A stretch of 35,126 nt of DNA, taken from a bacterium. GTDB taxonomy: Bacteria > SZUA-182 > DTGQ01. The DNA lies in the NCBI GenBank assembly GCA_040752695.1, contig JBFMGO010000056.1, positions 1-35,126 on the forward strand. The letters run 5' to 3'. A program made the translations under genes and the position numbers. Below are positions 5,756 to 35,126 of the stretch, piece after piece (the first letter of the stretch is position 1; the number at the start of each line of letters is the position of its first letter). The notes beneath the pieces are model-generated. The model ran no database searches, was not told where the DNA came from, and saw only the letters and a list, made by a program, of their open reading frames with translations.

Positions 5756-6769
5756 ATGATGATAACAAATTTACTTACCATTGATGTTGAAGAATGGTTT
5801 CATATCCATGCTTTTAGCCGGGTAATCTCTCCAAAAGACTGGGGAATTTTTGAGACGCGAGTGGAAAGAACCATCTATCGTATTCTCGATCTTTTAGATA
5901 GCGCACCCCTTCCCCTGACTCCCAAAGCCAGGCGGAGGGCAACATTTTTCATTTTAGGGTGGGTAGCAGAGCGTCATCACGCATTAGTGAAGGAAATCCA
6001 CACAAGGGGTCATGAGGTGGCCTGTCACGGGTATAGCCACGCATGCATTTTCAACCAGGAATATGATGAATTCAGGCATGACATAAAGAAAGCGAAAACA
6101 ATTCTGGAAGACATCACCGGAAAAGAGGTGATCGGCTATCGGGCATCAACATTTTCCATAACCCCAAAAACCACCTGGGCTTTAAACATTCTCAGAGAAG
6201 AAGGGTTTCTGTATGACTCCAGTGTATTTCCGATCCGTCACGATTATTACGGCATGCCATCAGCGCCCCGGTTCCCGTTTATCTGGCATGTAGCAGAAAG
6301 TGGTCCTCAAATAAGGGAAATCGACCTGGAAAATATTCCTTCTTTTCTCTGCCGCTCGCCTGAGTATTCTCCCTGCCTGATTGAGTTTCCGATGAGCACG
6401 GCCCTGGTTGCAGGACGGCGCTTCCCGGTTGGTGGCGGAGGGTATTTTCGTCTCTACCCCTATTCTCTTTCAAAGTTTTTATTGCGAAAGATTCATAAAG
6501 AGGGGAAGCCTTTTATATTCTACCTTCATCCCTGGGAAATAGATCCCGGTATCCCAAAGCTTGGTAGTGCCAAAATACTTTCACGGTTGAGAACCTATAT
6601 TAACTTGGAAAAAACAGAAAAGATGTTTCAAGATTTATTATCGGCTTTTCCTTTTTATTCAATCGCTGATTTTATTCATGAACATAAGATTATCAACGAC
6701 AGGCGGATACACCATGAAACAAGTTCTCCTCTCCTTTCCTGCAAAGGAAACCGATCAGGATCAATCTAA
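5756..6769 (+). CDS. Polysaccharide deacetylase (CE4, exosortase-A-system type, DUF3473 C-terminus)
   Basis: LTIDVEEWFH, ATFFILGWVAE, HEVACHGYSH, GYRA, YDSSVFP, GGGYFRLYP and FYLHPWEIDP motifs. Confidence 0.93.
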   Translation: MMITNLLTIDVEEWFHIHAFSRVISPKDWGIFETRVERTIYRILDLLDSAPLPLTPKARRRATFFILGWVAERHHALVKEIHTRGHEVACHGYSHACIFNQEYDEFRHDIKKAKTILEDITGKEVIGYRASTFSITPKTTWALNILREEGFLYDSSVFPIRHDYYGMPSAPRFPFIWHVAESGPQIREIDLENIPSFLCRSPEYSPCLIEFPMSTALVAGRRFPVGGGGYFRLYPYSLSKFLLRKIHKEGKPFIFYLHPWEIDPGIPKLGSAKILSRLRTYINLEKTEKMFQDLLSAFPFYSIADFIHEHKIINDRRIHHETSSPLLSCKGNRSGSI

Positions 6770-7628
6770 AAGTCAAACTATCACCCCTCGTTTCTTAATC
6801 AGTAAAAAAATGCTTCTCCATCTTTCGATTTTTTCACTTGGTGTCGGTATCCTTTACTATTCAGTTTTTAAATCCCTGGTTTATGACTGGCTGCATTTGC
6901 CCGACTTTTCCCATGGATTTCTCGTCCCGATCCTGAGCCTGTTCTTTGTATGGGAACGGAGAGAAGATCTCGCTCAGTTACCTGTTCTGCCCAGGGATTC
7001 GGGACTTATTGTTATCTTTCTGGGCATCATCTTGCTTTTGGCAGGCAATCTGGGGGGTGAGAGCTTTACCATGCGGGTATCTTTCCTGGTCTTTCTCTTC
7101 GGCAGCGTTCTTTTCCTGTTGGGATGGCCGTTTATTCGAAAGCTCCTTTTCCCTCTTGGTTTTTTGCTGTTCATGATCCCCATTCCATCTCTTTTGATGG
7201 GGAAGATCACTTTTCCAATGCAGATTTTTGCCTCCCGGGTAGCGGCCTTTTCCATTGAACACCTTGGAATACCTGTTCTCAGGGAAGGAAATATCATTAT
7301 CCTTGCTCATGCTACGCTGGAGGTCGCTGAAGCGTGCAGCGGTCTTCGGTCTCTCATCTCCCTTCTGGCCTTAGGAACGGTATTTGCCTATTTCACGCAA
7401 AAGGGATTCTGGCAGAGGCTGATACTGGTGCTGTCATGTTTTCCCATTGCTGTTTTCATTAACGCCCTGCGAGTCACTGTGACCGGAGTCCTTGCTCATT
7501 ACTGGGGGAGCGCCGCGGCTGAGGGACTCTTCCATGAATTCATTGGCTTTGGCACCTTTTTCATGGCCTTTGTTCTCCTGTTTGGGTTGAACTGCCTTTT
7601 ATCCAGGATCATCAAGGTACAACACTGA
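6714..7628 (+). CDS. xrt: Exosortase (EpsH family)
   Basis: Multi-TM protein with FSHGFLVP, catalytic Cys in VAEACSGLRSL, Arg in INALRV and His in LFHEFIG. The start is uncertain; ATG 6714 follows AGGCGG. Confidence 0.95.
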   Translation: MKQVLLSFPAKETDQDQSKSQTITPRFLISKKMLLHLSIFSLGVGILYYSVFKSLVYDWLHLPDFSHGFLVPILSLFFVWERREDLAQLPVLPRDSGLIVIFLGIILLLAGNLGGESFTMRVSFLVFLFGSVLFLLGWPFIRKLLFPLGFLLFMIPIPSLLMGKITFPMQIFASRVAAFSIEHLGIPVLREGNIIILAHATLEVAEACSGLRSLISLLALGTVFAYFTQKGFWQRLILVLSCFPIAVFINALRVTVTGVLAHYWGSAAAEGLFHEFIGFGTFFMAFVLLFGLNCLLSRIIKVQH

Positions 7629-7629
7629 T

Positions 7630-8301
7630 ATGTCGAGCGCACAGGTCCGATCCAGCCTTTCTTCCGAGAGGCGCTTTATTATCATACTTGTTCTCGTAGG
7701 GCTTGCAATTATAGCTCGTTACGGTCTTTCCCGGTCGGAAACATCGATCAATCGAAAGCCCCTGACCCGATTTCCTCAGATTATCGAAGATTGGAAAGCC
7801 ATCGATGAGCAATACATAGATAAAAATTCCATGGCTGTCCTCTTGGTGGATGATTACCTCATGCGTACATACATGAACGAAGGATGCCAGACCAGCAGCC
7901 TTTACATTGGTTATTTCAAAACCCAGAGGGAAGGAAAACAGATTCACTCACCCCGCCAATGCCTTCCCGGTGCTGGTTGGACCCTTTTGGAACATACAAA
8001 GTATCAACTGCCTTTGATGCAGCATAATCCTTCCAGGATTCCTGTAAATCTTTACCTCATGAGAAAAGGTTCTGAAAAACTGTCGGTTGTCTGGTGGTAT
8101 CAGGGACGGGGGCGAATTTATAACAATGAATGGCTCAACAAGCTTTATATGACCCTGGACTCGGTCGTAAAAGGCCGGACAGACGGCGCCCTGGTGCGGG
8201 TGATTACGCCGGTTACCTGCTCGGCAGAACAGACAATTGAAGATCAAACCAGGTTTATTAATAACTTTTTTCCATTGCTGAGGGAATACATACCTGATTA
8301 A
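7630..8301 (+). CDS. epsI: EpsI family exosortase-associated protein
   Basis: Single N-terminal TM with LYIGYF..QREGKQIHSPRQCLPGAGW, WWYQGRGR and RTDGALVRV. It begins 1 nt after the exosortase stop. Confidence 0.93.
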   Translation: MSSAQVRSSLSSERRFIIILVLVGLAIIARYGLSRSETSINRKPLTRFPQIIEDWKAIDEQYIDKNSMAVLLVDDYLMRTYMNEGCQTSSLYIGYFKTQREGKQIHSPRQCLPGAGWTLLEHTKYQLPLMQHNPSRIPVNLYLMRKGSEKLSVVWWYQGRGRIYNNEWLNKLYMTLDSVVKGRTDGALVRVITPVTCSAEQTIEDQTRFINNFFPLLREYIPD

Positions 8302-8381
8302 CCTTCATTTCCACAAGGGGCAAGAATATGTGTATGCCTGACTAGGCGCTTAGAATCTTATGAGTGAAACGAGGATAAGGA

Positions 8382-9503
8382 ATGAAAAAAGTTCTTGCAG
8401 TAATAGGTACCCGACCTGAGGCTATCAAAATGGCCCCGGTGATCAAGATCTTGCGTGAGCGACAGAGAACTTTTGAAATACGGGTTTGCGTAACCGGTCA
8501 GCACCGTGAGTTGCTTGACCAGGTTATCCAATATTTACCTATTCTAGTAGACTACGATCTTGATATCATGAGAAAAGGGCAAAATCTCTCCCAACTAACC
8601 GCAATAATTTTAAACAGCTTTCACCGGGTTCTTGAAGATTTTGAACCTCAGATCATCTTAATTCAAGGAGATACAACTACCGCTTTGGTCGGGGCTCTGA
8701 CCGGCTACTATAACCGGATTAAAGTAGGGCATGTTGAAGCAGGCTTGAGAACCCTGCATAAGTACGCTCCTTTTCCTGAAGAGATAAACCGGAGACTGAT
8801 CGGTGTATTGGCTGATTATCATTTCGCCCCTACCGAACGTGCGAAGCAATCTCTCCTTTGTGAAGGGATCGACGAGAAGACTGTCCTCGTTACGGGGAAT
8901 ACGGTCATTGATGCACTGTTTCTCACCATTGAGAAAATTCGTCATTCTCCCCCCCCGATCGGAGAGATCGAATCGGTGATCACCAGCGACAGGAAAATCG
9001 TTTTAATTACCGGGCATCGTCGTGAAAACTTTGGCGAGGGCTTTAGAAACATCTGTGAAGCTATCCAGTTATTGGCTCGAAAGTTTCCGGGCATTGCTTT
9101 CATCTATCCAGTGCATCTCAATCCCAACGTCCAAAAGCCCGTATTTGAGTTCCTCGGCAATCTGGATAATGTTCACTTGATCCCGCCATTAGTATATCCT
9201 GCTTTTGTCCGGCTCATGAACCTTGCCTATATCATAATCACCGATTCAGGCGGCATCCAGGAGGAAGCGCCCTCGCTCGGAAAACCCGTCCTGGTAATGA
9301 GAAACGTAACCGAACGGCCCGAGGCTATTGAAGCAGGTACCACTCGTCTTGTCGGTGTGGACAAGGAAAGCATTGTCAACGAGGTATCCAGACTGTTAGT
9401 CGATCCAGGCATACGAAACGCCATGAGTCATCGTGGTAACCCTTACGGAGACGGAACTGCCGCTGTGAAGATAGCCGATTATTTGGAAAATGTTCTGGAT
9501 TGA
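8382..9503 (+). CDS. wecB: UDP-N-acetylglucosamine 2-epimerase (non-hydrolysing)
   Basis: GTRPEAIKMAP, TGQHRE, QGDTTT, HVEAGLR, PFPEE.NR, HRRENFG, TDSGGIQEEAP and NPYGDG motifs. Confidence 0.97.
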   Translation: MKKVLAVIGTRPEAIKMAPVIKILRERQRTFEIRVCVTGQHRELLDQVIQYLPILVDYDLDIMRKGQNLSQLTAIILNSFHRVLEDFEPQIILIQGDTTTALVGALTGYYNRIKVGHVEAGLRTLHKYAPFPEEINRRLIGVLADYHFAPTERAKQSLLCEGIDEKTVLVTGNTVIDALFLTIEKIRHSPPPIGEIESVITSDRKIVLITGHRRENFGEGFRNICEAIQLLARKFPGIAFIYPVHLNPNVQKPVFEFLGNLDNVHLIPPLVYPAFVRLMNLAYIIITDSGGIQEEAPSLGKPVLVMRNVTERPEAIEAGTTRLVGVDKESIVNEVSRLLVDPGIRNAMSHRGNPYGDGTAAVKIADYLENVLD

Positions 9504-23072: not shown

Positions 23073-24223
23073 AAAAAATCGGTTTACTTACCTATTTTTG
23101 GGATCATAACCCGGGGACTTTTCTCCAGGCTTATGCTACGCTTGAAGCCTTAAAAAAAAGATTTCCGAAAGACCATGTGGAACTTATTAACTACAAACTA
23201 AGAAAAGTCCCTTTTACAACGGCCTTGATGCATAGAAAACCTGCCGAGCTTATCGAGGACTTAAGAAGGCATTATAAATACAAGGATGCACAACGAAAGT
23301 ATTTACCTCTGGGCTCAAAAAGCCTGATTACCTGGGATTATCATGAAGCGTCACACTTTATCAAGAGCTTAAAATATGATCTTATCGTTGTCGGCAGCGA
23401 TACCCTTTTGGACTTTCGTCCGGACCATCTGAAAAGAGGTACCGCTCCTGTATATTGGCTGCACCCCGGGATCAATGCTAAAAAGATAATGTGCGGTTCT
23501 TCTGCCAAGGCATGGACGTATGAGGAATTGACGAAAGAGCAGCGAACTATTTTAAAAGGGTCCATAAAGGATTTCGACCTTTTGGGGGTGCGAGATGAAG
23601 CTACCTACAACCTGATGAAGGCATTGGGAGGAGATGATAGGTCAAGGCTCTATAAAATTCCCGATCCTACCTTCTCCTTTGAAATAGATTATTCATTTGC
23701 AGAATCTTTGGTTAAAAAGAGAAAGATAGACTTTTCCAAGCCATCTGTTATGCTGAGCCTGCCCGAATGGTATAAGCCTGTTCATGACCTGGCTTCCTAT
23801 TATAGATCCCGGGGCTTTCAAATCATAAAACTGGAATTTGCCCGATACCCGGACCTATGCTTGCATGGCATTTCTCCCTTCGAATGGGCAGGGGTGTACA
23901 GGTACTTTGACCTGGTCATTACGGACCGTTTTCATGGTACGGTATTCAGTTTAAAAAACGGTACTCCTGTGGTGTCGATTATCTGCCGGAAAGACCTGGT
24001 TACTTCGACGGGAAATTCCAAGTATTACAGCTTACTGGAGCCCTTTGGCCTTCACAGGACAAATATTGTCGATGGTATGAGTAACCTTCATCCGGATCAT
24101 ATCATCGAAGTCACAGAGAGAGTAAGGCAAAACTTCCCCAAAATTTTTGTACAACAAAAAGTCCAGGAGCTCAAAGGCGCTTATAATGCGTTTGTAGACC
24201 AAATACCCTCTATACTGGGGTAA
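23069..24223 (+). CDS. Polysaccharide pyruvyl transferase family protein
   Basis: KIGLLTY...N.G..LQAYA, VVGSD, GVRDE, PDPTF and TDRFHGTVFS motifs. ATGA overlap with the nitroreductase. Confidence 0.9.
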   Translation: MKKIGLLTYFWDHNPGTFLQAYATLEALKKRFPKDHVELINYKLRKVPFTTALMHRKPAELIEDLRRHYKYKDAQRKYLPLGSKSLITWDYHEASHFIKSLKYDLIVVGSDTLLDFRPDHLKRGTAPVYWLHPGINAKKIMCGSSAKAWTYEELTKEQRTILKGSIKDFDLLGVRDEATYNLMKALGGDDRSRLYKIPDPTFSFEIDYSFAESLVKKRKIDFSKPSVMLSLPEWYKPVHDLASYYRSRGFQIIKLEFARYPDLCLHGISPFEWAGVYRYFDLVITDRFHGTVFSLKNGTPVVSIICRKDLVTSTGNSKYYSLLEPFGLHRTNIVDGMSNLHPDHIIEVTERVRQNFPKIFVQQKVQELKGAYNAFVDQIPSILG

Positions 24224-24271
24224 GATCAAAAGGCAGGTTTTTGAATTTGTCACTTGTTTGAATTTATTACT

Positions 24272-26083
24272 TTACTGAATAAGGGGATGCGTTTTTTTCC
24301 GGTAGATAGTATAGCCGATCCTGGCTAAATACTTCGGCAGATTTCTAACGGGATTTCTATCTTCTTCCCTGATATCGTCATCCAGATCTTCCCACGAAAC
24401 AAGATAAGGAGTAATCTTCTTTTTAATGTCTTTTTCAGGACCAGGTTTCCAGCCGCTCCGGCGGCGTTCCTCCACCCAGCGCTCGTGTTCTTTCCTGGCG
24501 ATCGTTTCTATTTCCTCCTGGGTGAACTCGAACAGTTTTTCATCCCAGTCCGTCAGAGGAACAAGAGTGCAGCCCAATTCTCTCAGTTTTATCCCGATAT
24601 GATCTGCCTGCTGTCGATTCGATTCTTTCAAACTTTGTGGCAATTCCTCCCAGGCGACCATGGATGGATTGCTTTCTGGCGTCTGACCTTTTTTCCCCTG
24701 CCGTTCTTTGTAGTCCTCATGAATTGCCCGGGCAAGAATCTCATTGGTGCCAGAAAGAACCTGTTCAGGCTGACATGTCCGGTCCATCAGAGCGAAGGCA
24801 TGGAACATGGCCAAGCTCTCATCGACTTTTCTCCCGCCTCTGAGCAAGGTCGCAAGACCAGCATCACGGCCCATTCGGACCACAATCGGAACAGCATACT
24901 CTCTGGTGCGCCTGTGCAGCGCCAGAGCTGTGGAAAGGCCAAAAGAGTCATTGTCAAGACAGACAAAGATACTGGTGACAGTGCACGTGCCGTTCCTGTC
25001 AAAGAGAAAATCGGCTGCCTGAAAGGTGGAAGACTCTATTTCCATCTGTCGAGGCAGTAACTCACAGACCTTTGCCAACCGGGGATATCGCAGGAGTAAT
25101 AATTCTTTTTTCCTGACCGCTTCTTTGTCGATCAGGGTGATGTGAAGCTTTTCACCGGATTGATGAGGCATGTCTTTCCAGTTCCTGGCTGCGTTTATGA
25201 CCAGCCTTTCTCCCATCAGTCCTATGCCGACAATGAGAAGGCGGGGATTAAGAACGCGTTTTCCCCCGGCATCGGTGAAGGGAGAGTAATCCTCCAGCCA
25301 TGACCGGGCTCCGCTGTCAAAAATGTTGAAAAACTCCAACCTGCAATTATCCCTTCTTCCGGTTTCAAGTTCCTGCTCTTCGAGCAAATGGCAAAGATAT
25401 GGGTCAACGAGGTGAATAATACAGGTAAGAACATTTCCTCTGTGGTCTCTGACCAGTTCGCGGGCATGAACCGCAACATCCGCATTCACACCGTCGTCAC
25501 CACAGACAGAAATGAGATACTTCGCCTTATGGACGCGGGCCTTAAGGAGCATCTCCCGGTCCCGGGCATCTCCAGGCATCACAGATACTCCCTGATCCTT
25601 GCATTGATCGAGGAAAGTGTTTCCTTCATCCAGTTCGATCACTACCACCTGTTGATCGTGCTGACGGAACTTTTGACAAAGAAGCATACCCTTTTTTCCC
25701 AGTCCGCAAATTACGATGTGATCGGTAACACACTGTACATGAAGAAGGTTTATCTGCTCTCGAAAAATTGCCGTGAATGCTCTGACAGCCGCATATGCAG
25801 CTATCGCAGGGGAAAGAAACCGGGCCACCTCCAGTTCCCAGTTCATAGCCAGTGGTGGGGCTTTGGATACATCAAAACTCAGGGTAAACAGTTGCAGAAC
25901 GCAGTAAACGATATCCAGACGTGACCGAACTTCATAGCAGGCGCTAAAGTATTTACTGAGGCCGACAAACCCGATCCCCATGGCCACAATCGCAATTCCA
26001 CCGATAATGGGCCACTGGAAGTCCTGCCATACTTTGCGTATATGCTTTTTCCACGGATTCCTGCCCTTTAAATCAAACTTCAT
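24272..26083 (-). CDS. Channel-like membrane protein: 2 TM with pore-like segment, two RCK/TrkA-N domains and two RyR repeats
   Basis: TMs WPIIGGIAIVAMGIGFVGL and ARFLSPAIAAYAAVRAF; Rossmann motifs HIVICGLGKKG and LLIVGIGLMG. RyR repeats are LARAIHEDY...WEELPQSLKESNR and IARKEHERW...GWKPG...PYLVSWEDL. Confidence 0.85.
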   Translation of the reverse strand: MKFDLKGRNPWKKHIRKVWQDFQWPIIGGIAIVAMGIGFVGLSKYFSACYEVRSRLDIVYCVLQLFTLSFDVSKAPPLAMNWELEVARFLSPAIAAYAAVRAFTAIFREQINLLHVQCVTDHIVICGLGKKGMLLCQKFRQHDQQVVVIELDEGNTFLDQCKDQGVSVMPGDARDREMLLKARVHKAKYLISVCGDDGVNADVAVHARELVRDHRGNVLTCIIHLVDPYLCHLLEEQELETGRRDNCRLEFFNIFDSGARSWLEDYSPFTDAGGKRVLNPRLLIVGIGLMGERLVINAARNWKDMPHQSGEKLHITLIDKEAVRKKELLLLRYPRLAKVCELLPRQMEIESSTFQAADFLFDRNGTCTVTSIFVCLDNDSFGLSTALALHRRTREYAVPIVVRMGRDAGLATLLRGGRKVDESLAMFHAFALMDRTCQPEQVLSGTNEILARAIHEDYKERQGKKGQTPESNPSMVAWEELPQSLKESNRQQADHIGIKLRELGCTLVPLTDWDEKLFEFTQEEIETIARKEHERWVEERRRSGWKPGPEKDIKKKITPYLVSWEDLDDDIREEDRNPVRNLPKYLARIGYTIYRKKTHPLIQ

Positions 26084-28239
26084 CTCAATTCTGTCCTATC
26101 TATCTCTCTCCCCTGGCAAGTACCGGAAACCAGATTAAGAAATTTCTCATTGTCGACATGCAGATCGAGCTGATGGGATGCGGGGAGGCAGGAGCGTTCA
26201 AACATGAGCCTGCCAAAAAGAGAGCTCATGTCGATGATGCACTCCATGGAACGCGCTCCGTGCCTGTAGGAGTCTATCAGGAGAAAGGCTTGAAGAACTC
26301 CCTCATCGATATGGAGCACATTTCCCCTGTCAAAAAGCTGGCCTGCCTTTGTACTGAGCAGTGAACGCAGGAGTAATGCGCGCCTGATAATAAATCCTTC
26401 ATCCTGTTCTCCCTGCGGATTGGGGCCGAGAACATTCAGGAATCCGCGAAGACGGCTCAGGAAGTCTCTCCCCTTGGCTGCCGGATTCAATTGGGCCGTT
26501 TCCCTGAAACTCTCCATCGTCGAGTGAGTTCCACCGGCAAAGACAAATATGGCAGGTCCGAGTGGATGAGGGATGCCTCCATTGTGGAATTCACCATCCT
26601 GCATCGGAACGAGAAAATATCGCAGCCACCCCAATTCACTGCCCGAGAGTGGTGTATCGAATTCATCCCAGAAAACGAGCGGCAATTCATGCCGCAGTAC
26701 ACAATCCCGAACGCTCTGAAAGGCAAAAGGTAACTCCTGGTGAGATTCGAATTGCGAAAGATTGAATTCCAACGGAGTTAATCGGCCTGGCATGAGTCCT
26801 TTGGCGACTTGCTTGATGGCGAAAGATTTTCCAGAGCCTGGCGGTCCGAAAACCGCTATCGAAAGGGGCCGCAAAGGGCGGCTCTGGGCCACGTATTCGG
26901 TCATGATAGTGCACAGGCTGCGGATGTTCTCGATCTCGGTGCGATCAACGGAAGACCACTTTCCGATTCGCTCAAGCGGTATATCGCCAAGTGATTCCTC
27001 AGGACCGGCCCTCACGATATCTGCTGCCATCTTTTTCATGTCCAGATTTTGTCGAAGAGAGAGGATCGACCATTCCCTCTTCTTTAAATCCTGAAGTTTG
27101 ACAGAAGAAAAGGGTGTTTTCTCTGCCGTGAGAGCTTCGGTAACCGCTTTAACCGGGAACCGGAGGTCCACGAGCGTGTTTCCATCTCCCTGTGCATATC
27201 CTGCCAGGTGGATGGCCCGGGCAGCGTTGACGCCGCGCTTTAGTGCATCTTCCAAATCGGGCCTGCCTGAATTCTTCATGAATTGATGGACAAGAGCCGC
27301 AATAGAGCAGGATGCATAGCCGATGCAGGTGCCGGGATGGTCCCGCCTCCAGTTTTCCTCCTGAGCATACGGATCGAATATCAGGGTATTGCCCTTCTTA
27401 CGATCGATAATAACCGCACCGGTTGTACCCAGCAGCACGGCAACAGCCGATGGCTTTGACAGGTTCGGGTCATTGGTCACAGCCTGAATCACTTCACTCG
27501 AAATCTGCTCCCATGAAAGGGCATATCCGATATGCATACTGGCTCTTCTCAGGTCACTCACTGAGACTACTGCCACCAGCTTATCAGCAAAATGAGTTAT
27601 TACCTGCTCCCAGACAGGCCCCTTGGCAACAGGATGAGCAATCTTAATCACTACCCACTCTGTTTCCGCCGAAGGGCATTTTATACTTTCGGGCCATGTT
27701 TCCTGTTGATCCCGGATTCCCAGATTGGCATCATCCAGAACCACCCCCCATGCGTTTTTAGGAGATTCTGCGGATATGGGGTATGTCCTGGAGGCGGAAT
27801 CCGTGCCCCAGAACTCGGCAACTCTCCAAACCATCCCTTTGCCTTTTTCCCCCGTACTCCGAGGGTATGCCGACCAGATGGAATATGAGCGCGTATACTG
27901 ATTGTGAGCAGGGTTATTGAGAGCTTCAGGGGGGATAGTCGGACCGATAATCTCATACTCCGGCGGGCTATACCCGTACTTTGAAGAGCCATACTTGATG
28001 GAGCCATTCTCATAATCTGAAGGGCTGGGAGTGATTTCGCACAGGGCACCGAGCAATTCCGTTAACAGAGCAGCCCCTCCTGCCTGGCTGCACGCTCTGG
28101 TGGCGATATCGCTCCCCCAGATATATTGATAGGTGGTTAATTCACCCAGATGTGCACGAGCGCGGGCAATATTCCAATCTATGGTTACATCTCCGGCCAC
28201 GACAATGGTTTTGACATTCCGTTTCGACGCTTCAGGCAT
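26080..28239 (-). CDS. AAA+ P-loop ATPase with a degenerate PfkB/RfaE-like N-terminal domain
   Basis: Walker A GPPGSGKS, Walker B LVFWDEFD, DFLSRL and HGARSM; N-terminal IVVAGDVTIDW and AGGAALL. ATG 28239 follows GGAGGTGG. The stop overlaps the next gene's start (ATGA). Confidence 0.8.
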   Translation of the reverse strand: MPEASKRNVKTIVVAGDVTIDWNIARARAHLGELTTYQYIWGSDIATRACSQAGGAALLTELLGALCEITPSPSDYENGSIKYGSSKYGYSPPEYEIIGPTIPPEALNNPAHNQYTRSYSIWSAYPRSTGEKGKGMVWRVAEFWGTDSASRTYPISAESPKNAWGVVLDDANLGIRDQQETWPESIKCPSAETEWVVIKIAHPVAKGPVWEQVITHFADKLVAVVSVSDLRRASMHIGYALSWEQISSEVIQAVTNDPNLSKPSAVAVLLGTTGAVIIDRKKGNTLIFDPYAQEENWRRDHPGTCIGYASCSIAALVHQFMKNSGRPDLEDALKRGVNAARAIHLAGYAQGDGNTLVDLRFPVKAVTEALTAEKTPFSSVKLQDLKKREWSILSLRQNLDMKKMAADIVRAGPEESLGDIPLERIGKWSSVDRTEIENIRSLCTIMTEYVAQSRPLRPLSIAVFGPPGSGKSFAIKQVAKGLMPGRLTPLEFNLSQFESHQELPFAFQSVRDCVLRHELPLVFWDEFDTPLSGSELGWLRYFLVPMQDGEFHNGGIPHPLGPAIFVFAGGTHSTMESFRETAQLNPAAKGRDFLSRLRGFLNVLGPNPQGEQDEGFIIRRALLLRSLLSTKAGQLFDRGNVLHIDEGVLQAFLLIDSYRHGARSMECIIDMSSLFGRLMFERSCLPASHQLDLHVDNEKFLNLVSGTCQGREIDRTELR

Positions 28240-28254
28240 TACCACCTCCATTCC

Positions 28255-28683
28255 TTATTCCAGAGGAGGAGGGTTTTTTTGATCCATGTACCCCTGACTG
28301 ATTTCGATGATGTTGCCTTCGGGATCTGCGATCCAGACCGTGCGCCAGCCCGGAATAAAGCTGTCAAAATTCATCGGCCCCTGGGTAATTTCCGCCACGC
28401 CAGCCAATTCTTTCAATTTGGCATCGACATCATCTACCTGAAAGGCCAGATGACGCAATCCTGGATACAGCGGGCCATCCCCACCGGATTTCGGAGCGGG
28501 CAGTTCGTCCTTGGCTTTGAACAATTCAAGATATACATTGTCCGATTTGAGAAAGACGATTTGATCATCGCCAAGCGGAATCAGGCGGGCACGTTGAAAC
28601 CCGAAATATCTGGTATAAAATTTCTCGATGGCAACCGGATCATTACAATTCATCGCCACATGGGCAAATTTCAAAGAAGCCAT
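28255..28683 (-). CDS. VOC (glyoxalase/bleomycin-resistance/dioxygenase) family protein, 142 aa
   Basis: Metal-ligand motifs FAHVA, YLELF, LRHLAF.VDDVD and DPEGNIIEI. The start is ATG 28683 after AGGAGG, not 28914. Confidence 0.92.
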   Translation of the reverse strand: MASLKFAHVAMNCNDPVAIEKFYTRYFGFQRARLIPLGDDQIVFLKSDNVYLELFKAKDELPAPKSGGDGPLYPGLRHLAFQVDDVDAKLKELAGVAEITQGPMNFDSFIPGWRTVWIADPEGNIIEISQGYMDQKNPPPLE

Positions 28684-28745
28684 GAACTTCCTCCTGTTAC
28701 AGGCGCGAAACCCGAACCTCTTCCTTTTACAGGCGCGCAAATCCC
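28684..28745. repeat. Imperfect tandem duplication (30 and 32 bp) covering the upstream gene end and an RBS
   Basis: GAACTTCCTCCTGTTACAGGCGCGAAACCC (28684-28713) versus GAACCTCTTCCTTTTACAGGCGCGCAAATCCC (28714-28745). Confidence 0.75.
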
Positions 28746-29170
28746 GGTGCGTACCTGAAGGGTTCCGCCGTTGCATCGTAGGTAACAATTTCCAATCCAT
28801 AGGAATTTTTCCCCGAGCGGCGCACGGTCCATTTCTGGGTCGCGTCCAGGGAAATACGTTTGCTTTTCGGCGATGGCGGCTCCCACAAACTGGCTTGCCA
28901 TGAGACAACAACATCCAATTCGGCCTTATTGCTGCTGATCTTGCCTTCTATGCTTTGAACATAGTGACTCTCGTCAAAAAAGAGGTTGGTTACCCGGACA
29001 TACCATTTTTTGAAACTTTCAAAATCACGAATATCCCCATCAGGAAACTGCATATGTAACTCTTCATCCGCCAGAAGCTTATAACACTCCTCAATCGGAA
29101 CATGAAAATCTAATGCCTGGTACCAGGCAGCAACAAATCTTTCGATTTCGTTGAAGGTCAAATCAGCCAT
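28727..29170 (-). CDS. NTF2/SnoaL-like protein
   Basis: 147 aa with N-terminal helices (F...WY.ALD, LLADE) followed by beta-strands (FFDESHYV, VVVSWQA, QKWTV). RBS AGAGGAG. Confidence 0.75.
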   Translation of the reverse strand: MADLTFNEIERFVAAWYQALDFHVPIEECYKLLADEELHMQFPDGDIRDFESFKKWYVRVTNLFFDESHYVQSIEGKISSNKAELDVVVSWQASLWEPPSPKSKRISLDATQKWTVRRSGKNSYGLEIVTYDATAEPFRYAPGFARL

Positions 29171-29234
29171 TGTTTATCTCCTCTTAAACGGTTTTCTGAA
29201 TCAGTTCCAGTCAGTATGTTTCGTTTTTATCGAT

Positions 29235-30464
29235 TCAGTCAGTCCATTTTGTTCCTAATCTGTCGTAATCGACATCAGGAAGGAGGGTGAGTGCGATGTG
29301 CCGATAGATCTTCCCATCCTTCATATACAAGCCATTCAGTGCCTGGACGGTTCCCCTGCCTTCGCTCGTAATCGTGGCTCTGAAGATGATGACATCCTCG
29401 ATTTCGGCAAAGTATTCGGTTGCCATGAAAGTGATATTACGCATGATCTTCAGGGTATCCACGTAATATTTTTTGAGTTCCTCATGTCCCCGGCGCATTC
29501 CATCAAAGGTGACCATGACTGCATCACTGTGATAGTGTTTTTCAACTAATTCATCTATTTTCCCGCTGGACATCAACATGAGTTGCTCATTGTAGAAATC
29601 TTTGCCCCTGCCCGGTGTAAACATTCTTTTCTCGATGAGTTGCTGGATGGAGATATCCAACTCGTACGTCAACAGGAACAAGGTGGTTTCACTTGGCAAA
29701 TATCTTTGCATGTCTGCCGCTATTTTGTCTCGTGATTCCCTGCTTACCGGGACCGACCGGTCTTCGAGTGCGGCAACGGCATTGATAAAGGCATTGTTAT
29801 ATCCAGTCTGCCAATCCACACATTCCATCCCGACCGGAGATGGACCATGTCCGGTGTAAAAGCGGGTTGACCGTTCATCAAAATCCTGTTTGAGACGTTT
29901 GAGAATGTCCTGCCATTCAAATACGTGTCCGTCACGGAAAAAACAGTGACAGTTCAAAGTCGCTAGATCGCCGATAAAAGCATGCGTTATGCCGTTCTTG
30001 CGAAAGGTCCATATGCTATCGTCGTCAGATTCGCCAGGTCCCACACCGGTGAATGTAAACTTCACGCCGCCAAAGGTAAGGGAATCTCCATCCCTGACGA
30101 TCTCATTGGGGAAAAGACGTTTTCGCGGGTAATCCTCTCCCAGATAATTAATTGCTGTTGAAGATTTCGTCTCATCCTCTCGCTTCGCAAATTCCAGGCA
30201 GCCTTGCGAGGCGAAGCGGGGCAGATCCTCAAAAGCCACTAATCCTGTGTAATGATCGGGGTGCCCATGTGTCAAAAGTACCGCTTCAACCGGTTTGCCG
30301 AAAGAATTTGCTTTTTTGCGTAATTCCTGGGCGCTGGAAAGGGCAAGTGTGGTGTCTATCACCACGACACTGTTTTCCAACTCAACGATATATGCATTGA
30401 CGTGATCCCTGGGTAATTCCATAAACTTGCCCAATAACTTATGAATAACTGGAAATTCCAACAT
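29235..30464 (-). CDS. Metallo-beta-lactamase-fold protein fused to a C-terminal NTF2/SnoaL-like domain
   Basis: VNAYIV, VVIDT, THGHPDH, GDL and GHG motifs. The last ~130 aa are homologous to the adjacent 30503-30880 ORF. ATG 30464 follows AAGGAG. Confidence 0.88.
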   Translation of the reverse strand: MLEFPVIHKLLGKFMELPRDHVNAYIVELENSVVVIDTTLALSSAQELRKKANSFGKPVEAVLLTHGHPDHYTGLVAFEDLPRFASQGCLEFAKREDETKSSTAINYLGEDYPRKRLFPNEIVRDGDSLTFGGVKFTFTGVGPGESDDDSIWTFRKNGITHAFIGDLATLNCHCFFRDGHVFEWQDILKRLKQDFDERSTRFYTGHGPSPVGMECVDWQTGYNNAFINAVAALEDRSVPVSRESRDKIAADMQRYLPSETTLFLLTYELDISIQQLIEKRMFTPGRGKDFYNEQLMLMSSGKIDELVEKHYHSDAVMVTFDGMRRGHEELKKYYVDTLKIMRNITFMATEYFAEIEDVIIFRATITSEGRGTVQALNGLYMKDGKIYRHIALTLLPDVDYDRLGTKWTD

Positions 30465-30502
30465 AATCTCTATTCTCCTTATACTTTTTGCTTTCCTTAT
30501 TC

Positions 30503-30880
30503 TTACAATGACTTCATCGCCCATTCCTTTGTTTTTTCGGGAGATATGGTCAATGCGATATGACGGAAAATTTTTCCGTCTTTTAGATAGAACGCGTCAT
30601 CACCTTTAATAATTCCAAACTTTTCGGTCTGGACGCTGGCCTTATAGATGATCACGTCATCCGATTCCGCAAAGTAATCGGTAGACAGCCCCAGAATTTT
30701 GCCCGTAACTTTAGGTGCATCTTCTTTTAAATATTTTCCAATGGCTTCTCTTCCTTTCAGGACGAATTCAAAGGTGACCATCTGGGCATCTTCATGATAA
30801 TGGTCGCGTAACAAGCCATCGATATCACCTTTCCCTAAATAGGCAAGGTGTTCCTGATAAAATTTCTCACCTGGCGTCAT
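30503..30880 (-). CDS. NTF2/SnoaL-like protein
   Basis: GDIDGLL..HY.EDA, GREAI and a terminal FYLKDGKI strand. RBS AAGGAGG. Confidence 0.85.
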   Translation of the reverse strand: MTPGEKFYQEHLAYLGKGDIDGLLRDHYHEDAQMVTFEFVLKGREAIGKYLKEDAPKVTGKILGLSTDYFAESDDVIIYKASVQTEKFGIIKGDDAFYLKDGKIFRHIALTISPEKTKEWAMKSL

Positions 30881-30958
30881 GGTATGTCCTCCTTTTAATA
30901 TAATGTATGAATAGTATCTTTCTTATTTTGATCTTCATGTCATGCATCAGCTATACTG

Positions 30959-31399
30959 TCAATGTCCAGGATTAACGGATCCAGGTAAGGGGATGGGATT
31001 TTCGTTTACAAGGTAATATTCAGCACTCATAATCTTGCCATTTTTTATTTTGTATATATGTAACCTGTCCCCTTGGTAACTATCTCCAGCAGAAGGAGCA
31101 CCTTTCGCCCATACTCCCTTTTCAGTCAGGTAAACCATAACCTTATTTTCTTCAGACATGATTTCATGGGGATTGATTTCCGTAATATGTGCCCTGTTAA
31201 ATATCCCCTGGACTAATTCTAAGACCTCATAAATTCCTTCCCGCACTAACGAAGGTTTGTAAGAATTAACCACTAACCTGATGTCGTCAGTTAATAAATT
31301 TTTTATTCTCTTCAGATCTTCTTTCAGATAAGCATCGAATAATTTTAAAACTACCTCTTTTCTTTCATTACCAGTTGTGCTTGGTTGTCCCTTTTCCAT
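30959..31399 (-). CDS. NTF2/SnoaL-like protein
   Basis: V..LFDAY...D...I..LLTDD, E..SE.NKV.V and a terminal YKIKNGKI. Confidence 0.8.
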   Translation of the reverse strand: MEKGQPSTTGNERKEVVLKLFDAYLKEDLKRIKNLLTDDIRLVVNSYKPSLVREGIYEVLELVQGIFNRAHITEINPHEIMSEENKVMVYLTEKGVWAKGAPSAGDSYQGDRLHIYKIKNGKIMSAEYYLVNENPIPLPGSVNPGH

Positions 31400-31468
31400 A
31401 GCGGATCCTTTCCTCTGGTATACGTTTTTCCCCTTATTTCCTCATATTCCGGCATAGCCTGTTCTATT

Positions 31469-31852
31469 CTAACTAAGGTTTTGATCCGTAAAGGGTTTAA
31501 ATGGGACGGAATCATGAAAATTTGCCATATAGCTTATTTTTCCATTTCGAACAATAAAAAAATTTACCCCTTTTGCATCTATAGGCACTCCCTTGGCATT
31601 GGCTGCGTCAATATGCCATAAAACCATTGCCTTTTCACCCTCAACCAGGACTTCCAGCGGACGGTTAATAAATTTGGAATATCCTTTTTTTAGCCCGTCT
31701 ACCGCACCCCTTAAGGTTTCAATGCCTTCTAGATGTCCTGCTAATTGCTCATCCATAACAATGTCATCATCAAATAAAGTTACCCATTTATCCCAATTAC
31801 CCATATTTACTACATAAAAATAGGTTTCGATAACTTCTCTTGTATTCATCAT
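31469..31852 (-). CDS. NTF2/SnoaL-like (ketosteroid-isomerase-like) protein
   Basis: IETYF..N.G.WD.W..LF.DD, VEGEKA and F.VRNGKI..M..FHDS. RBS GAGGAGG. Confidence 0.88.
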   Translation of the reverse strand: MMNTREVIETYFYVVNMGNWDKWVTLFDDDIVMDEQLAGHLEGIETLRGAVDGLKKGYSKFINRPLEVLVEGEKAMVLWHIDAANAKGVPIDAKGVNFFIVRNGKISYMANFHDSVPFKPFTDQNLS

Positions 31853-31892
31853 ACTATTACCCTCCTCTTTTGCTTTTTTCTTGTCCTTACAT

Positions 31893-32258
31893 TCATTGGA
31901 AGGCCTTTGTAAAATGTGCGGAGTCGTGAAAGCTGGCCATATAGGTTATTTTCCCTCCTTTGATTTCATAATAATTCGCTCCTTTTGAAATTAAAGAAGT
32001 ACCCTTCCGGGTAGTGGCTTCAATTTCACATACCACCATGGCCTTATTTCCATCAACGACTATTTCTCTAAGGTGATTTTTGAATTTTGGCAAGGCTTGT
32101 TGGATTGTATCCACAGATTTTCTAATAGCCTCCTTCCCTTTTGAGATATTTGACATATCATCTACAATAGCATTATTATCAAATAAGTCTGCCCATTTAT
32201 CCCATTCTCCCGAATTCAAAAAAGTAAAATAGGCTTCGATAATTTCTCTTACATTCAT
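31893..32258 (-). CDS. NTF2/SnoaL-like protein, paralog of 31469-31852
   Basis: IEAYF..LNSGEWDKW..LFD, GKEAIR, VDGNKAMV and YEIKGGKITYMASFHDS. RBS GAGGAG. Confidence 0.88.
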   Translation of the reverse strand: MNVREIIEAYFTFLNSGEWDKWADLFDNNAIVDDMSNISKGKEAIRKSVDTIQQALPKFKNHLREIVVDGNKAMVVCEIEATTRKGTSLISKGANYYEIKGGKITYMASFHDSAHFTKAFQ

Positions 32259-32324
32259 TATAGAGATTTCTCCTCATCGTCATGCTTTCATGCCTTAAAA
32301 TTTACTATTATCTCCATTACAGGC

Positions 32325-32700
32325 TTATCTTCTTGCCAGGACAATGAAACCGTTTGCTGGAATGACCGTGTTGATCCGTCCGTTTGAAGAGAAGATATCC
32401 ATCCCATAATTTCCGCTCTTGTTCCCTCCAAAATCTTCGGCATCGCTATTGAAGACTTCCTGCCAGCGGGCATCTTCTATGCGCCTATTTTCAATGACAT
32501 AGCCGCCAGTAAAAGGATGGTTGTTGAGGCTGGCCGCAATGATGAATTCCTGCTGATCATCCCAGCGCCGGAATGCGATGACTCTATTGGTATTATGAAC
32601 ATGGAGAATCTCAACAGCATGGGAACGCAAACCCGGATTATTCAGGCGCAACTGAATTAAGTCCCGGTAAAACCGGAATAAAAATCTTCCATCCCTTTCC
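32325..32700 (-). pseudogene. Frameshifted C-terminal portion (alpha-amylase C beta-domain) of the upstream GH13 gene
   Basis: The alternate frame reads DGRFLFRFYRDLIQLRLNNPGL...NRVIAFRRW...WQEVFNSDAEDFGG...IPANGFIVL, a typical GlgB/TreZ C-terminus. It has no start/RBS of its own. Confidence 0.85.
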
Positions 32701-34801
32701 CTTGCCCGTAAAGGTCTTCTCTATTATCGGCAAAGTCACTGTATCTATAATCTTTTTGGGCACCCACCTCTTCACCCATAAGAAACAGGGGAGTCCCGGC
32801 AGAAAGCACAGACATGCCAAAAGCAAAGCGGCACCGGGCTTCGGCGACACGCCGGGTTTCACCGGAAAGAGATGCACGATTGACCGCTGCATGGATGGTT
32901 CGCATAGAATGCTCTGAATTCCCCGCTTCATCGTGAGACTCGTGATAAACAACTTTTTTATTGGCAGAGGCCAGCAGGACACCTGCGAAATAATCCATAT
33001 TGAGAGGCCGATCATCTCCATAGCCCGCAGTTGTTATCAGATTGGCATACTCCGGCCCCCTGCCTGTATCGCCACTGAGATGATGATAAAAATCCGCATA
33101 CCAGACTGCATCGAATCCCAATCCTCCTCTATCCGTTCCTTCAGTTACTTTATCCCAATTGGAGTGATCTTCGGCTGTGAGGATTACATCCGGTTTTATC
33201 ATCTTTAAGGTGCTGCACAGTTCTCTTAAAAATTTTACACCAAAAGCATTGACATTGCCCGCAGGTTTGCCATTTGCATGAAGTACATTATAGGCGTGGA
33301 TAGAGGTAGTCTGATCCATTCGGAAACCATCGATATGGAAATTTTCCATAAGGGTCACTGCACTGCTGATAAACAGCTTTCTGACCATTTCCTCATGATA
33401 GCGAGGAGCATAGCCAGTAGACATGTTATCTATATACCCTCCATGCCCTTTCTGATTATTCGTTGCAGCCTCATAAAAGCGGGGATAATCGGAAGGTCTT
33501 CCTTCATACCAGTAGTAAACATTGTGTTCCGGGACATCGGAATCGTAAGCCCATTCAGCCCTCTCTGCATCGTGGTGGTAATGGTTATAGACAACATCCA
33601 TGATCACGGCGATGCCCCGGCGATGACACTCCCGGATAAAATGCTTGAATTGATCCCTGCCTCCTGCGCTGTATTCAAGGGCAAAATAGTGGGAAGTCCC
33701 ATATCCCCATTGGGCCCAGCCCTCAAACTCGGAAATGGGTAACAGCTCTATGGCATTAACGCCAAGCTCGGTGAGATGGTCGAGGAGTTCTATGGCATCT
33801 TCAAAATTGCCGGGCCTGTTCTTACCAAAACCAAGAGCACCGATATGCAGTTCGTAAATAACAAGATCTTCAACGCGGCCGGGCAACCTTTTCCCTGAAG
33901 TGAATTCATCTTTCCAGAATTCTTCCTCTGAGATAAATTCATGTTCCGGCCAGACGTCTTCTTTAAAGTTTTTGGCTACCGTTTCAGGATCTATGACCAC
34001 GGAGCAGCTTTTTGTGCCGTCGAGCTCAGTTGTTCTGCCGCTAAAATGGCCTCCCCGTGGGTCAAAAGTGCCGCTTCCTATCTGGCAGCGGGAATACAAG
34101 TCCGTGCGGTACGAAGCTTCTCCCTGAGATGAGGTGTTTCTCCCTTCCTTCCAGATTCTGTACATATAGAGTCTGTGATCATACCGGGAAAAACGGGGAA
34201 TAATCTCAGTCATCCAGACACCATTTTTGGGGCGCATAGGGAGAGGAGAAAAATCGGATGACTCATTCATGCCGGCACCATCATCGGCAATGTATCCGGA
34301 CTCCCCTCCAAAAACAACATCAACTTTTTCCGCGTTCGGTGCCCAAACCGCAAAGCGAAGGCCAGCCTCATCCCTGCCTGCGATGCCCGTATCACCCCTA
34401 GCCGTGGTATATTGTTTATTGGCACCAAGCCACAGGCAGTGAATCAGGTGATAGATTTCTTCCTGTGGCCTGTCTGTGCCACCTGGTTCCAGGACAAAGG
34501 TTCGATAACGGTCGGCAGAAGCCGTGGAATTGATCTCCGTTAGGATGCCCCATTGATTGGGGCCCTGGGGGGCATCGAAGATGACCCCCCAGCGAAATTC
34601 TCTTCCTGCCTCTGCTTCATCCAATGCCACCGTGGCTGTAAAGCAGATTGAGCCATCTTCCAACACCCCCGGTTCCATCGTACTTTCTGTCCACTGTTCC
34701 GAATACCGGCCGCTCCTGTCCCAACTGCCAGTCAATCTGGCATTGTGAAACAGGTCCCTTTTCATGCCTGTCGAATACATAAACCGGACGGGAATACTCA
34801 T
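32657..34801 (-). CDS. GH13 alpha-glucan-active enzyme (branching enzyme / TreZ-like, CBM48 plus catalytic barrel), truncated by a 1-nt frameshift
   Basis: FAVWAPNA, IYELHIG, WGYG, DVVYNH and PLFLMGEE, with catalytic residues in GFRMD, AED and SHDE. The true end is at 32325 if the frameshift is repaired. Confidence 0.9.
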   Translation of the reverse strand: MSIPVRFMYSTGMKRDLFHNARLTGSWDRSGRYSEQWTESTMEPGVLEDGSICFTATVALDEAEAGREFRWGVIFDAPQGPNQWGILTEINSTASADRYRTFVLEPGGTDRPQEEIYHLIHCLWLGANKQYTTARGDTGIAGRDEAGLRFAVWAPNAEKVDVVFGGESGYIADDGAGMNESSDFSPLPMRPKNGVWMTEIIPRFSRYDHRLYMYRIWKEGRNTSSQGEASYRTDLYSRCQIGSGTFDPRGGHFSGRTTELDGTKSCSVVIDPETVAKNFKEDVWPEHEFISEEEFWKDEFTSGKRLPGRVEDLVIYELHIGALGFGKNRPGNFEDAIELLDHLTELGVNAIELLPISEFEGWAQWGYGTSHYFALEYSAGGRDQFKHFIRECHRRGIAVIMDVVYNHYHHDAERAEWAYDSDVPEHNVYYWYEGRPSDYPRFYEAATNNQKGHGGYIDNMSTGYAPRYHEEMVRKLFISSAVTLMENFHIDGFRMDQTTSIHAYNVLHANGKPAGNVNAFGVKFLRELCSTLKMIKPDVILTAEDHSNWDKVTEGTDRGGLGFDAVWYADFYHHLSGDTGRGPEYANLITTAGYGDDRPLNMDYFAGVLLASANKKVVYHESHDEAGNSEHSMRTIHAAVNRASLSGETRRVAEARCRFAFGMSVLSAGTPLFLMGEEVGAQKDYRYSDFADNREDLYGQGKGMEDFYSGFTGT

Positions 34802-35126
34802 CGTATCGCCTCCGGCTTATATTCTGGATTCGGTATATACTCCACGGCAATCTCATACCCTTCCGCTCCTTCTCTGGTCGAGGGGCCAAGTTCGATCTGA
34901 AAATTATCTTTATGGATACGGTTCCATTCCGCACCATTGACAAAGACCTGTCCCATTTTTAAACATCCCTTTGGCAGATAATCAGGCATAACGTTGATGA
35001 TATTGTTTTCTCTTGAGGGGCAGGGTTTGAAATAAAGTCTGAAAGGAATCTTGTTCACGAAGGTGCGGATGTAAAGCTGAGCAAGAAAATTAAGCTCAAA
35101 AACATGATACCCGGATTTTGAGTGGC
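34798..35126 (-). CDS. Partial gene (5' end outside window); probable C-terminus of an AGE-family (N-acylglucosamine 2-epimerase-like) protein
   Basis: The frame is open to the window edge: HSKSGYHVFELNFLAQLYIRTFVNKIPFRLYFKP...INVMPDYLP. The YH motif resembles the last catalytic His region of AGE epimerases (recalled, not searched). ATGA overlap with the GH13 gene. Confidence 0.6.
   Translation of the reverse strand, partial: HSKSGYHVFELNFLAQLYIRTFVNKIPFRLYFKPCPSRENNIINVMPDYLPKGCLKMGQVFVNGAEWNRIHKDNFQIELGPSTREGAEGYEIAVEYIPNPEYKPEAIR

Follow-up and report, generated by a model that had tools for sequence, protein, structure and literature searches.

An operon joining an icfG-type enzyme core to a second recurrent module of NTF2-fold, metallo-beta-lactamase and thiamine-diphosphate proteins

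What might a row of small NTF2/SnoaL proteins be doing behind genes for the handling of alpha-glucan? The question is raised by one end of a bacterial contig of 35,126 bases (JBFMGO010000056.1, here C56), which in its complete length is the window of this study and which belongs to a genome bin of 239 contigs, 96.6% complete with 2.3% contamination. Open reading frame (ORF) calls, together with Pfam and NCBIfam scans of the window's proteins, find a co-oriented string of genes on the minus strand from position 35126 down to 28255. This end of the window is the distal two thirds of a single-strand operon of about 12 kb and 13 genes that begins on another contig of the same genome, C129. The order is thiamine-diphosphate (ThDP) enzyme of benzoylformate decarboxylase type, ThiJ/Hsp31-like protein, DJ-1/PfpI protein, AGE-like protein, GH13 enzyme, four NTF2-like proteins (Sno1 to Sno4), a fusion of metallo-beta-lactamase (MBL) and SnoaL domains, a 147-residue protein here called U147, and a VOC protein. 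Judged by their neighbors elsewhere, two recurrent modules appear to be joined in this operon: module A, consisting of the DJ-1, AGE-like, and GH13 genes, and module B, consisting of the ThiJ-like, ThDP, U147, and SnoaL genes, with or without MBL and VOC.

The first gene in the window is open at the contig's edge, and the original prediction took it for a probable AGE epimerase. It is indeed the C-terminal end of an AGE-superfamily protein of about 630 residues that continues on C129. The contigs are joined because the genome contains a single PF07221 match, C129:13-606, at the start of its contig and on the strand that fits a join, because the two pieces are consecutive parts of one gene in all 13 related genome loci, and because they align to residues 1-509 and 529-631 of the 632-residue protein of locus L003. 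About 19-20 residues are missing between C56 and C129, and no k-mers (21-127 nt) are shared between the window's ends and other contigs.

Against a PF07221 cut-off of 23.4 bits, the C129 part scores 41.4 and the L003 protein 47.7. The modelled structure of the L003 protein (pLDDT 77, pTM 0.85) shows a core of the (alpha/alpha)6 type, flanked by a small beta domain at the N-terminus and a further beta domain at the C-terminus, and Foldseek places the core with cellobiose 2-epimerase (E=1e-12), glucose 2-epimerase, mannose isomerase, YihS, and AGE (TMt 0.72-0.78). Catalysis in the AGE superfamily relies on a pair of histidines with an associated arginine and glutamate. HMMER aligns the GHNLK of the AGE-like family with the GHAIE of a solved AGE, so that the histidine is kept, and SGYH, SRL, and WWQQEQ are conserved in the alignment, as judged by eye. 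The protein resembles the 2-epimerases and isomerases of the superfamily in its fold, its PF07221 score, and the alignment of its GH motif. It differs from them in its length of about 630 residues, owing to the extra N-terminal (about 105 residues) and C-terminal (about 70 residues) beta domains, in having GHNLK for GHxxE, in matching no NCBIfam family, and in the level of its PDB sequence matches, 1e-4 to 1e-9. The AGE-like protein of locus L025 (L025:11016-13160) is longer still, at 714 residues, about 90 of which form a C-terminal extension not shared by the other homologs.

The genes of the string follow one another closely. The original prediction spoke of gaps under 80 bp or ATGA overlaps, and so they are: from the AGE-like fragment to the VOC gene the spacings are -4 (ATGA), 66, 40, 69, 78, 38, 64, and 43 nt, and a GGAG-type ribosome site stands before every start codon. 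The operon starts behind a 310-bp AT-rich divergent region on C129. There is no sign that the genes are transcribed separately, though scans of 23800-35126 for sigma-70 promoters and terminators were uninformative (13 and 10 sites, as against 16.5 and 11.2 in shuffles), and a sigma-54 motif was matched 7 times on C129 where 6.1 are expected, in no case upstream of the ThDP gene. Pfam finds no PKS in the window or on C129. All products of the operon are predicted to be cytoplasmic, signal peptides being absent to the eye, and no gene in it needs ATP, NAD(P), or a flavin.

Certain partners had been predicted upstream, and some of them are there. C129 supplies two genes of the DJ-1/PfpI type and one for a ThDP enzyme; for GH31 glucan lyase the genome gives no match over the cut-off. 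GMC oxidoreductase genes are seen in the related clusters L025 and L101, and the latter also holds a carbohydrate porin. The only GMC_oxred_N match in the window's own genome is at C69:30085-30804, inside an open frame of 4714 residues. Catalytic motifs are kept in the DJ-1 protein (Cys-His pair), in the ThiJ-like protein (Cys elbow), and in the ThDP enzyme (GDG..NN). Benzoylformate decarboxylase and glyoxylate carboligase are the nearest matches of the last of these. It shares with the former the three ThDP domains and the GDG..NN motif, and in the PDB it matches it at 229 bits (1.2e-66), but its NCBIfam score of 314 bits is under the equivalog cut-off of 493, and its gene is paired with a ThiJ-like gene, as it always is in the loci examined.

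How much of this arrangement recurs elsewhere? The original prediction had staked itself on homologs that co-occur across genomes, and they do. In all 13 genome loci the AGE-like gene has DJ-1 as its immediate upstream neighbor. In 11 of the 13 it is followed by a GH13 gene at a distance of up to about 2 kb, and the other two contigs stop short of that point. Within the window's phylum, the DJ-1/AGE-like/GH13 layout is found in two of the three other positive genomes, and in the third (L099) the contig ends about 1 kb past the AGE-like gene. The ThiJ-like gene accompanies the AGE-like gene in L003, L004, L098, L099, and L100. Two metagenome-assembled genomes, at 68% identity, carry ThiJ-like, ThDP, DJ-1, AGE-like, and intact GH13 genes followed by genes for EthD, VOC, SnoaL-ankyrin, muconolactone-isomerase-like, and GDPD proteins; Sno1-4, the MBL fusion, and U147 are absent from these two loci. 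The EthD, VOC, SnoaL-ankyrin, and muconolactone-isomerase-like genes of the relatives occupy the slot taken in the window by the NTF2/MBL block, and the presence of different small cofactor-free folds in the same slot suggests that they share a kind of chemistry. In the closest relative, two genes of the phage-integrase family (L003:4034-6008) stand just upstream of the ThiJ-like/ThDP/DJ-1/AGE-like/GH13 cluster, which hints that the cluster is mobile.

Module B was traced through its MBL. A metagenome scan with this protein gave 80 loci, seven with an MBL at least 49% identical and 73 with one at most 40% identical. U147 is present in all seven, and so is a gene of the Sno1/2 type, both flanking the MBL, while among the 73 only L025, L026, L032, L038, and L090 matched another gene of the cluster. 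Locus L022 carries ThiJ-like, ThDP, MBL, U147, and Sno1/2 genes. Longer contigs bring the two modules together with their genes in differing orders. Locus L020 has U147, Sno2, MBL, two copies of Sno4, VOC (55% identical to the window's), DJ-1, ThDP, ThiJ-like, and AGE-like. L025 has EthD, two GMC genes, MBL, ThiJ-like, ThDP, a GlgX-type GH13, the extended AGE-like gene, and DJ-1. L101, in a complete cyanobacterial chromosome, has on one strand ThiJ-like, ThDP, U147, five further SnoaL domains, an OprB porin, NmrA, a GMC oxidoreductase, DJ-1, VOC (62%), and AGE-like. Among 251 sampled cyanobacteria, the AGE-like gene is found in 22 and U147 in 10, and the two together in 4 where 0.9 would be expected (hypergeometric P=0.007, the related genomes not being independent); the four strongest cyanobacterial matches to U147 are all in AGE-positive genomes. 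A full-text literature search for this wider combination of genes found no paper.

If the small proteins act together, one might look for cases in which they have been fused, and such cases exist. Among 26 MBL fusion proteins, seven have the form Sno2-type-MBL-Sno4-type, one of them with two Sno4-type domains, and four have the form Sno4-type-MBL-Sno4-type. The window's Sno2 is 44-55% identical to the N-terminal domain of the seven, and its Sno4 is 56-59% identical to that of the four. Natural fusions link genes that are separate in the window. The window's own MBL fusion probably starts at Met 30464, giving 409 residues with the metal motif HGHPDH kept, and the cluster MBL is 55-67% identical to stand-alone relatives, some of them labelled Chloroflexota or Anaerolineae.

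That the small proteins all have the NTF2 fold, with six such domains in about 3.5 kb, was part of the original prediction. The interval is 3.53 kb (28727-32258), and all six domains are of this fold, on evidence that differs from one to the next. Sno1, Sno2, and Sno3 pass the Pfam cut-off for SnoaL_2, which is 27 bits. Sno1 and Sno2 are paralogs (42% identity), and their nearest PDB sequences are an epoxide hydrolase, IdmH, and limonene epoxide hydrolases (1e-6 to 8e-9). Sno3 had no homologs by tblastn in the related genome, the phylum, the metagenome, or the cyanobacterial loci. Sno4 is a paralog of the C-terminal domain of the MBL fusion (44% identity to residues 302-417); with 30.1-38.8 bits, its relatives from cyanobacterial loci clear the SnoaL_2 threshold, and a profile of the fusion's C-terminal domain matches the SnoaL-like PDB chain 7e85 at 1e-4. 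The case of U147 rests on modelling, because hhalign gave no significant link to Sno1/2 (E=0.056). Its AlphaFold2 model (pLDDT 88.3, pTM 0.82) matches 378 PDB chains at E<=1e-3 in Foldseek, those listed being NTF2-type folds, with 3b8l, the scytalone-dehydratase-like 3ef8, and LinA in the lead (TM 0.74-0.75) and bile-acid 7-alpha dehydratase also among the top matches. Relatives of U147 in other phyla (587 clusters) are about 70% identical. Among 591 candidates examined for longer, fused forms, none turned up at E<=1e-5, though this negative carries little weight. The VOC protein, from another fold, has its His/Glu ligands, as judged by eye.

The GH13 gene was predicted and is present, but its reading frame is broken. 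The two ORFs that bear its domains are one gene (32325-34801) for a protein of about 820 residues with CBM48, catalytic, and Alpha-amylase_C domains, split by a one-base frameshift near 32693, where frames -2 and -1 meet in tblastn. The shift falls within the stretch GGGAAAGGGATGGAAGATTTTT. The homologous gene is a single frame of 808 residues in L003, L004, and L098. The PF00128 score is 74.4 bits, and regions I-IV are present (DVVYNH, GFRMD, AED, and HESHDE). No NCBIfam cut-off is reached. The best PDB match is GlgB (5gr1, 115 bits), and on the GlgX model TIGR02100 the window's gene scores 76.3 bits against a cut-off of 640.9, compared with 699 and 698 for the GH13 genes in L005 and L015. 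The window's enzyme therefore looks like a branching enzyme or TreZ rather than GlgX. A TreY/TreZ trehalose route, which also calls on a GH13 enzyme with CBM48, was rejected: the best NCBIfam score is the one to TreZ, yet its 164 bits fall well short of the cut-off of 539, and the cluster holds no TreY.

Table 1. Positions of the operon genes on the window (C56) and on C129, with the genes adjoining them
Feature	Contig	Position	Strand	Support
AGE-like protein, C-terminal fragment, open-ended, 108 aa	C56	34798-35124	-	ORF
GH13, first ORF, CBM_48 and Alpha-amylase domains	C56	32657-34801	-	Pfam
GH13, second ORF, 108 aa, Alpha-amylase_C domain alone	C56	32325-32651	-	Pfam
Sno1, SnoaL_2 protein, 121 aa	C56	31893-32258	-	Pfam SnoaL_2 54.2 bits
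Sno2, SnoaL_2 protein, 127 aa	C56	31469-31852	-	Pfam SnoaL_2 54.1 bits
Sno3, SnoaL_2 protein, 146 aa	C56	30959-31399	-	Pfam SnoaL_2 38.6 bits
Sno4, NTF2-like protein, 125 aa	C56	30503-30880	-	SnoaL_2 18.7 bits, under cut-off
MBL-SnoaL fusion	C56	ORF 29235-30524, likely 29235-30464	-	Lactamase_B 60.3 bits; C-terminal SnoaL_2 23 bits
U147, 147 aa	C56	28727-29170	-	no Pfam/NCBIfam family; NTF2 fold by model
VOC (glyoxalase-fold) protein, 142 aa	C56	ORF 28255-28914, likely start 28683	-	Glyoxalase 44.7 bits
Two downstream genes: 723-aa protein, then 603-aa protein	C56	24272-28251	-	Pfam
AGE-like protein, N-terminal 504 aa	C129	1-1512	-	PF07221, runs off contig end
DJ-1/PfpI protein, 200 aa	C129	1547-2149	-	profile search
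ThiJ-like (ThiJ/Hsp31-like) protein, 282 aa	C129	upstream of DJ-1	-	PF17124
ThDP enzyme, 555 aa, all three ThDP domains	C129	same strand	-	Pfam
Second GH13, 625 aa	C129 (L002)	5063-6940	+	closest to maltodextrin glucosidase, cyclomaltodextrinase

The string does not end at the VOC gene, as had been thought. The 723-residue gene, with weak Pfam matches to nSTAND_NTPase5/AAA (STAND/AAA), starts 3 nt past the VOC stop, and the 603-residue gene, with TrkA_N and RyR domains, overlaps it by ATGA. Both are probably co-transcribed with the cluster. They are not conserved with it: homologs were not found in the related loci, save for one weak match in L090. PADLOC gave no hits on these two genes, and on this ground, together with the conserved enzyme content, a reading of the whole string as a defence system was rejected. 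On C129 the second GH13 gene is transcribed divergently from the ThDP gene, and two PEP-CTERM proteins are encoded at 7749-9336. The plus strand of the window, from 743 to 24223, holds an exosortase-type exopolysaccharide cluster, with genes for a sugar transferase, Poly_export/SLBB, Wzz/GNVR, and AAA_31 proteins (the last possibly a chain-length tyrosine kinase), a polysaccharide deacetylase, exosortase EpsH, DUF3485, a UDP-GlcNAc 2-epimerase, five glycosyltransferases, a Wzy_C polymerase, a flippase, an acyltransferase, a nitroreductase, and a pyruvyl transferase.

Part of the operon has been met before. The icfG cluster has been tied to the regulation of carbon and glucose in cyanobacteria since the 1990s (PMC12329169). 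In Synechocystis PCC 6803 it is the operon slr1852-1862, in which an 'N-acetylglucosamine 2-epimerase' (Slr1855), an anti-sigma antagonist, a GlgX enzyme, and IcfG are listed (PMC8670252); slr1856 and slr1859 encode STAS proteins, slr1857 an isoamylase, slr1860 a phosphatase, and slr1861 a kinase, and mutants in icfG and slr1859 have carbon and glucose phenotypes (PMC12329169). The enzyme genes carry no assigned reaction in the portions of the literature consulted. In Synechocystis, as in the window, the AGE-annotated gene adjoins that of a GH13 glycogen enzyme, and the pair formed by C129 and the window likewise has a DJ-1 gene directly upstream of the AGE-like gene, a likeness of layout. The same layout is seen in cyanobacterial locus L015 (CMD, DJ-1, AGE-like, AhpC, STAS, GlgX, STAS, kinase, and SpoIIE phosphatase) and in L100, from a genome of the window's own phylum. 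The differences are of two sorts. The window's locus lacks the GlgX-type isoamylase (slr1857), its GH13 being of another type, and no gene of the window or C129 matches the Pfam families for STAS, RsbW-type kinase, or PP2C phosphatase; the genome's STAS matches are on C6, C7, and C48 only. On the other side, ThDP and ThiJ-like proteins, MBL, six NTF2 domains, and VOC have been added. The AGE-like/DJ-1/GH13 core thus appears to correspond to the enzyme part of the icfG cluster, a correspondence that the original prediction had missed. Because the switch proteins are lacking and the GH13 is not GlgX, it is a relative of that cluster and not a member of it as defined. The core is in this sense already known as a gene cluster, of which the window's locus is a variant.

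What, then, might the operon do? AGE enzymes act via a cis-enediol, VOC and DJ-1 enzymes isomerise 2-oxoaldehydes, and NTF2 enzymes are tautomerases of the ketosteroid-isomerase type or dehydratases of the scytalone/LinA/BaiE type. The folds of the operon would have in common a chemistry of proton transfer next to carbonyls. I propose, tentatively and with rather less than even confidence, that the operon carries out the redox-neutral processing of a reducing sugar derived from alpha-glucan, by way of enediol or dicarbonyl intermediates. GH13 would free or remodel alpha-glucan chains, and the AGE-like enzyme would epimerise or isomerise the reducing-end glucose through a cis-enediol. The NTF2 proteins, VOC, and MBL would then dehydrate, tautomerise, and hydrolyse the resulting keto-sugar, with U147, which resembles NTF2-fold dehydratases, a candidate for such a step. 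The ThDP enzyme may cleave or ligate beside the carbonyl, and the two DJ-1-type proteins may convert alpha-oxoaldehyde products. What the genes do display is their content, folds, intact catalytic motifs, co-occurrence, and fusions; from these I infer which substrate is used, in what order the steps run, and what they yield.

The original prediction went further, likening the pathway to the anhydrofructose route of fungi and algae, which proceeds through a GH31 alpha-1,4-glucan lyase, a dehydratase, and a tautomerase. The concept is shared, that of turning alpha-glucan into a reactive keto-sugar or enone by cofactor-light dehydratases and tautomerases, but the enzymes of the window's operon have different folds and GH31 is lacking. 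The route is not supported because GH31, its defining enzyme, has no match over the cut-off in the genome: the best PF01055 match, on C62, has 22.6 bits, which is under the cut-off, and in a genome 96.6% complete the literal route is rejected. The earlier interpretation is in this way partly supported, its general idea surviving its own tests.

Several observations weigh against the sugar-processing proposal. The AGE-like family has lysine at the position of the glutamate in the GHxxE motif of AGE, in all rows that cover the motif, and the frameshifted GH13 may be inactive, if the shift is not an error of assembly. The lack of a significant hhalign link between the U147 family and Sno1/2 also belongs here. 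The two modules can occur apart: none of the four genomes with loci L003, L005, L012, and L015 has U147, and in L102 and L104 the ThiJ-like, ThDP, U147, and SnoaL genes are accompanied by dehydrogenases but, within 10 kb, by no AGE-like gene. In L103, U147 is found alone. In two cyanobacterial loci (L105:6664-11288 and L106:8159-13831), U147-like genes at about 38% identity stand beside lipoxygenase-like and MIF genes, with an SDR gene as well in L105, so that the NTF2 family of U147 appears not to be tied to sugars. Nor is the operon a settled feature of its phylum. The AGE-like gene is found in 4 of 20 species genomes and is absent from both genomes of the same genus (96-97% complete), and MBL-SnoaL and U147 are each found in one of the 20, this genome alone. 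The GC content of Sno1-3 is 36-37%, against 48% for the genome. That the NTF2/MBL block is unique in the phylum sample and its Sno1-3 low in GC suggests that it is a recent acquisition or insertion.

These observations have to be set against other explanations. One, possible but in my judgment on the unlikely side, is that the genes form no linear pathway at all but a co-regulated set for defence against carbonyl stress, in which proteins with the folds of glyoxalases I, II, and III, a ThDP carboligase, and NTF2 tautomerases each clear aldehydes or dicarbonyls arising from the mobilisation of glycogen. VOC, MBL, and DJ-1/Hsp31-like proteins supply each of the three glyoxalase folds, with the metal and Cys motifs, and the neighbors of the cyanobacterial core are of the stress type (AhpC, CMD, and partner-switch regulators). 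The gene that precedes slr1855, slr1854, appears under the name 'General stress protein 18' and responds to butanol by induction (PMC3726282), and the icfG mutant does not grow on glucose at low carbon (PMC12329169). The accessory genes vary by lineage (EthD, ABM, MIase-like, and SnoaL), as those of a loose defence set would. The name given to Slr1854 is presumably one used for the DJ-1/PfpI family. None of the proteins reaches an NCBIfam glyoxalase cut-off, however, and the equivalog scores fall far short: 47.1 bits against 140 for VOC (YaeR-type), 20.5 against 200.8 for MBL (GloB), 63.3 against 139 for DJ-1 (PfpI), and 33.5 against 365 for the ThiJ-like protein (HchA). The MBL differs from glyoxalase II also in being fused to an NTF2 domain, and there are no genes for a thiol cofactor in the cluster. 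Tight SnoaL-MBL-SnoaL fusions and the high identity of U147 across phyla point instead to one specific substrate.

An alternative view, which I consider unlikely, is that module B acts on something other than a sugar, an aromatic 2-oxo acid, a quinone-like compound, or an oxylipin, and that it stands beside the glucan genes through shared regulation or the insertion of an island. SnoaL, EthD, ABM, MIase-like, VOC, and MBL folds are typical of the tailoring of aromatic polyketides, and the enzyme nearest to the ThDP protein acts, after all, on benzoylformate. The AGE-free L102 and L104, where the neighbors are SDR, Zn-ADH, and [2Fe-2S] genes, fit this view, as do the lipoxygenase and MIF genes of L105 and L106 and the low-GC block found nowhere else in the phylum sample. 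It is harder to reconcile with the adjacency of modules A and B in four independent settings (the window, L020, L025, and L101), with the ThiJ-like gene that accompanies the AGE-like gene in the five loci already named, with the AGE-positive genomes that hold the four strongest cyanobacterial U147 matches, or with the carbohydrate-selective porin and GMC oxidoreductase inside the L101 string.

That the locus is decaying or mis-assembled, with GH13 a pseudogene and the string a binning chimera, is very unlikely (and compatible with the other readings in any case): the frameshift at about 32693, the AGE-like gene split over two contigs without shared end k-mers, and the 239-contig bin with its contamination would be explained, but the AGE-like halves fit to within about 20 residues and make up the genome's sole gene of this kind, every other gene has an open frame, a ribosome site, and its motifs, and the same adjacency is found in contigs from elsewhere.

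What might the locus mean beyond this genome? The enzyme core of the icfG type is wired to a second recurrent module, both in gene strings and in natural fusions, and about ten enzymes that probably act on one metabolite make a concrete and testable list. Among them are U147 and the cluster MBL, two strongly conserved proteins without a described function. I would go further only as a conjecture with little claim to likelihood: module B together with the AGE-like enzyme of the Slr1855 type might be an undescribed branch of glycogen catabolism, free of ATP and NAD, that makes a small carbonyl or reductone metabolite from a glucan-derived reducing sugar or disposes of such a compound, and that in cyanobacteria is under the control of the icfG phospho-switch. 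If that were true, control of the branch by icfG would explain the long-unexplained glucose phenotype of icfG mutants. Were the reaction identified, a gap would be closed in what is understood of glycogen metabolism or of carbonyl stress.

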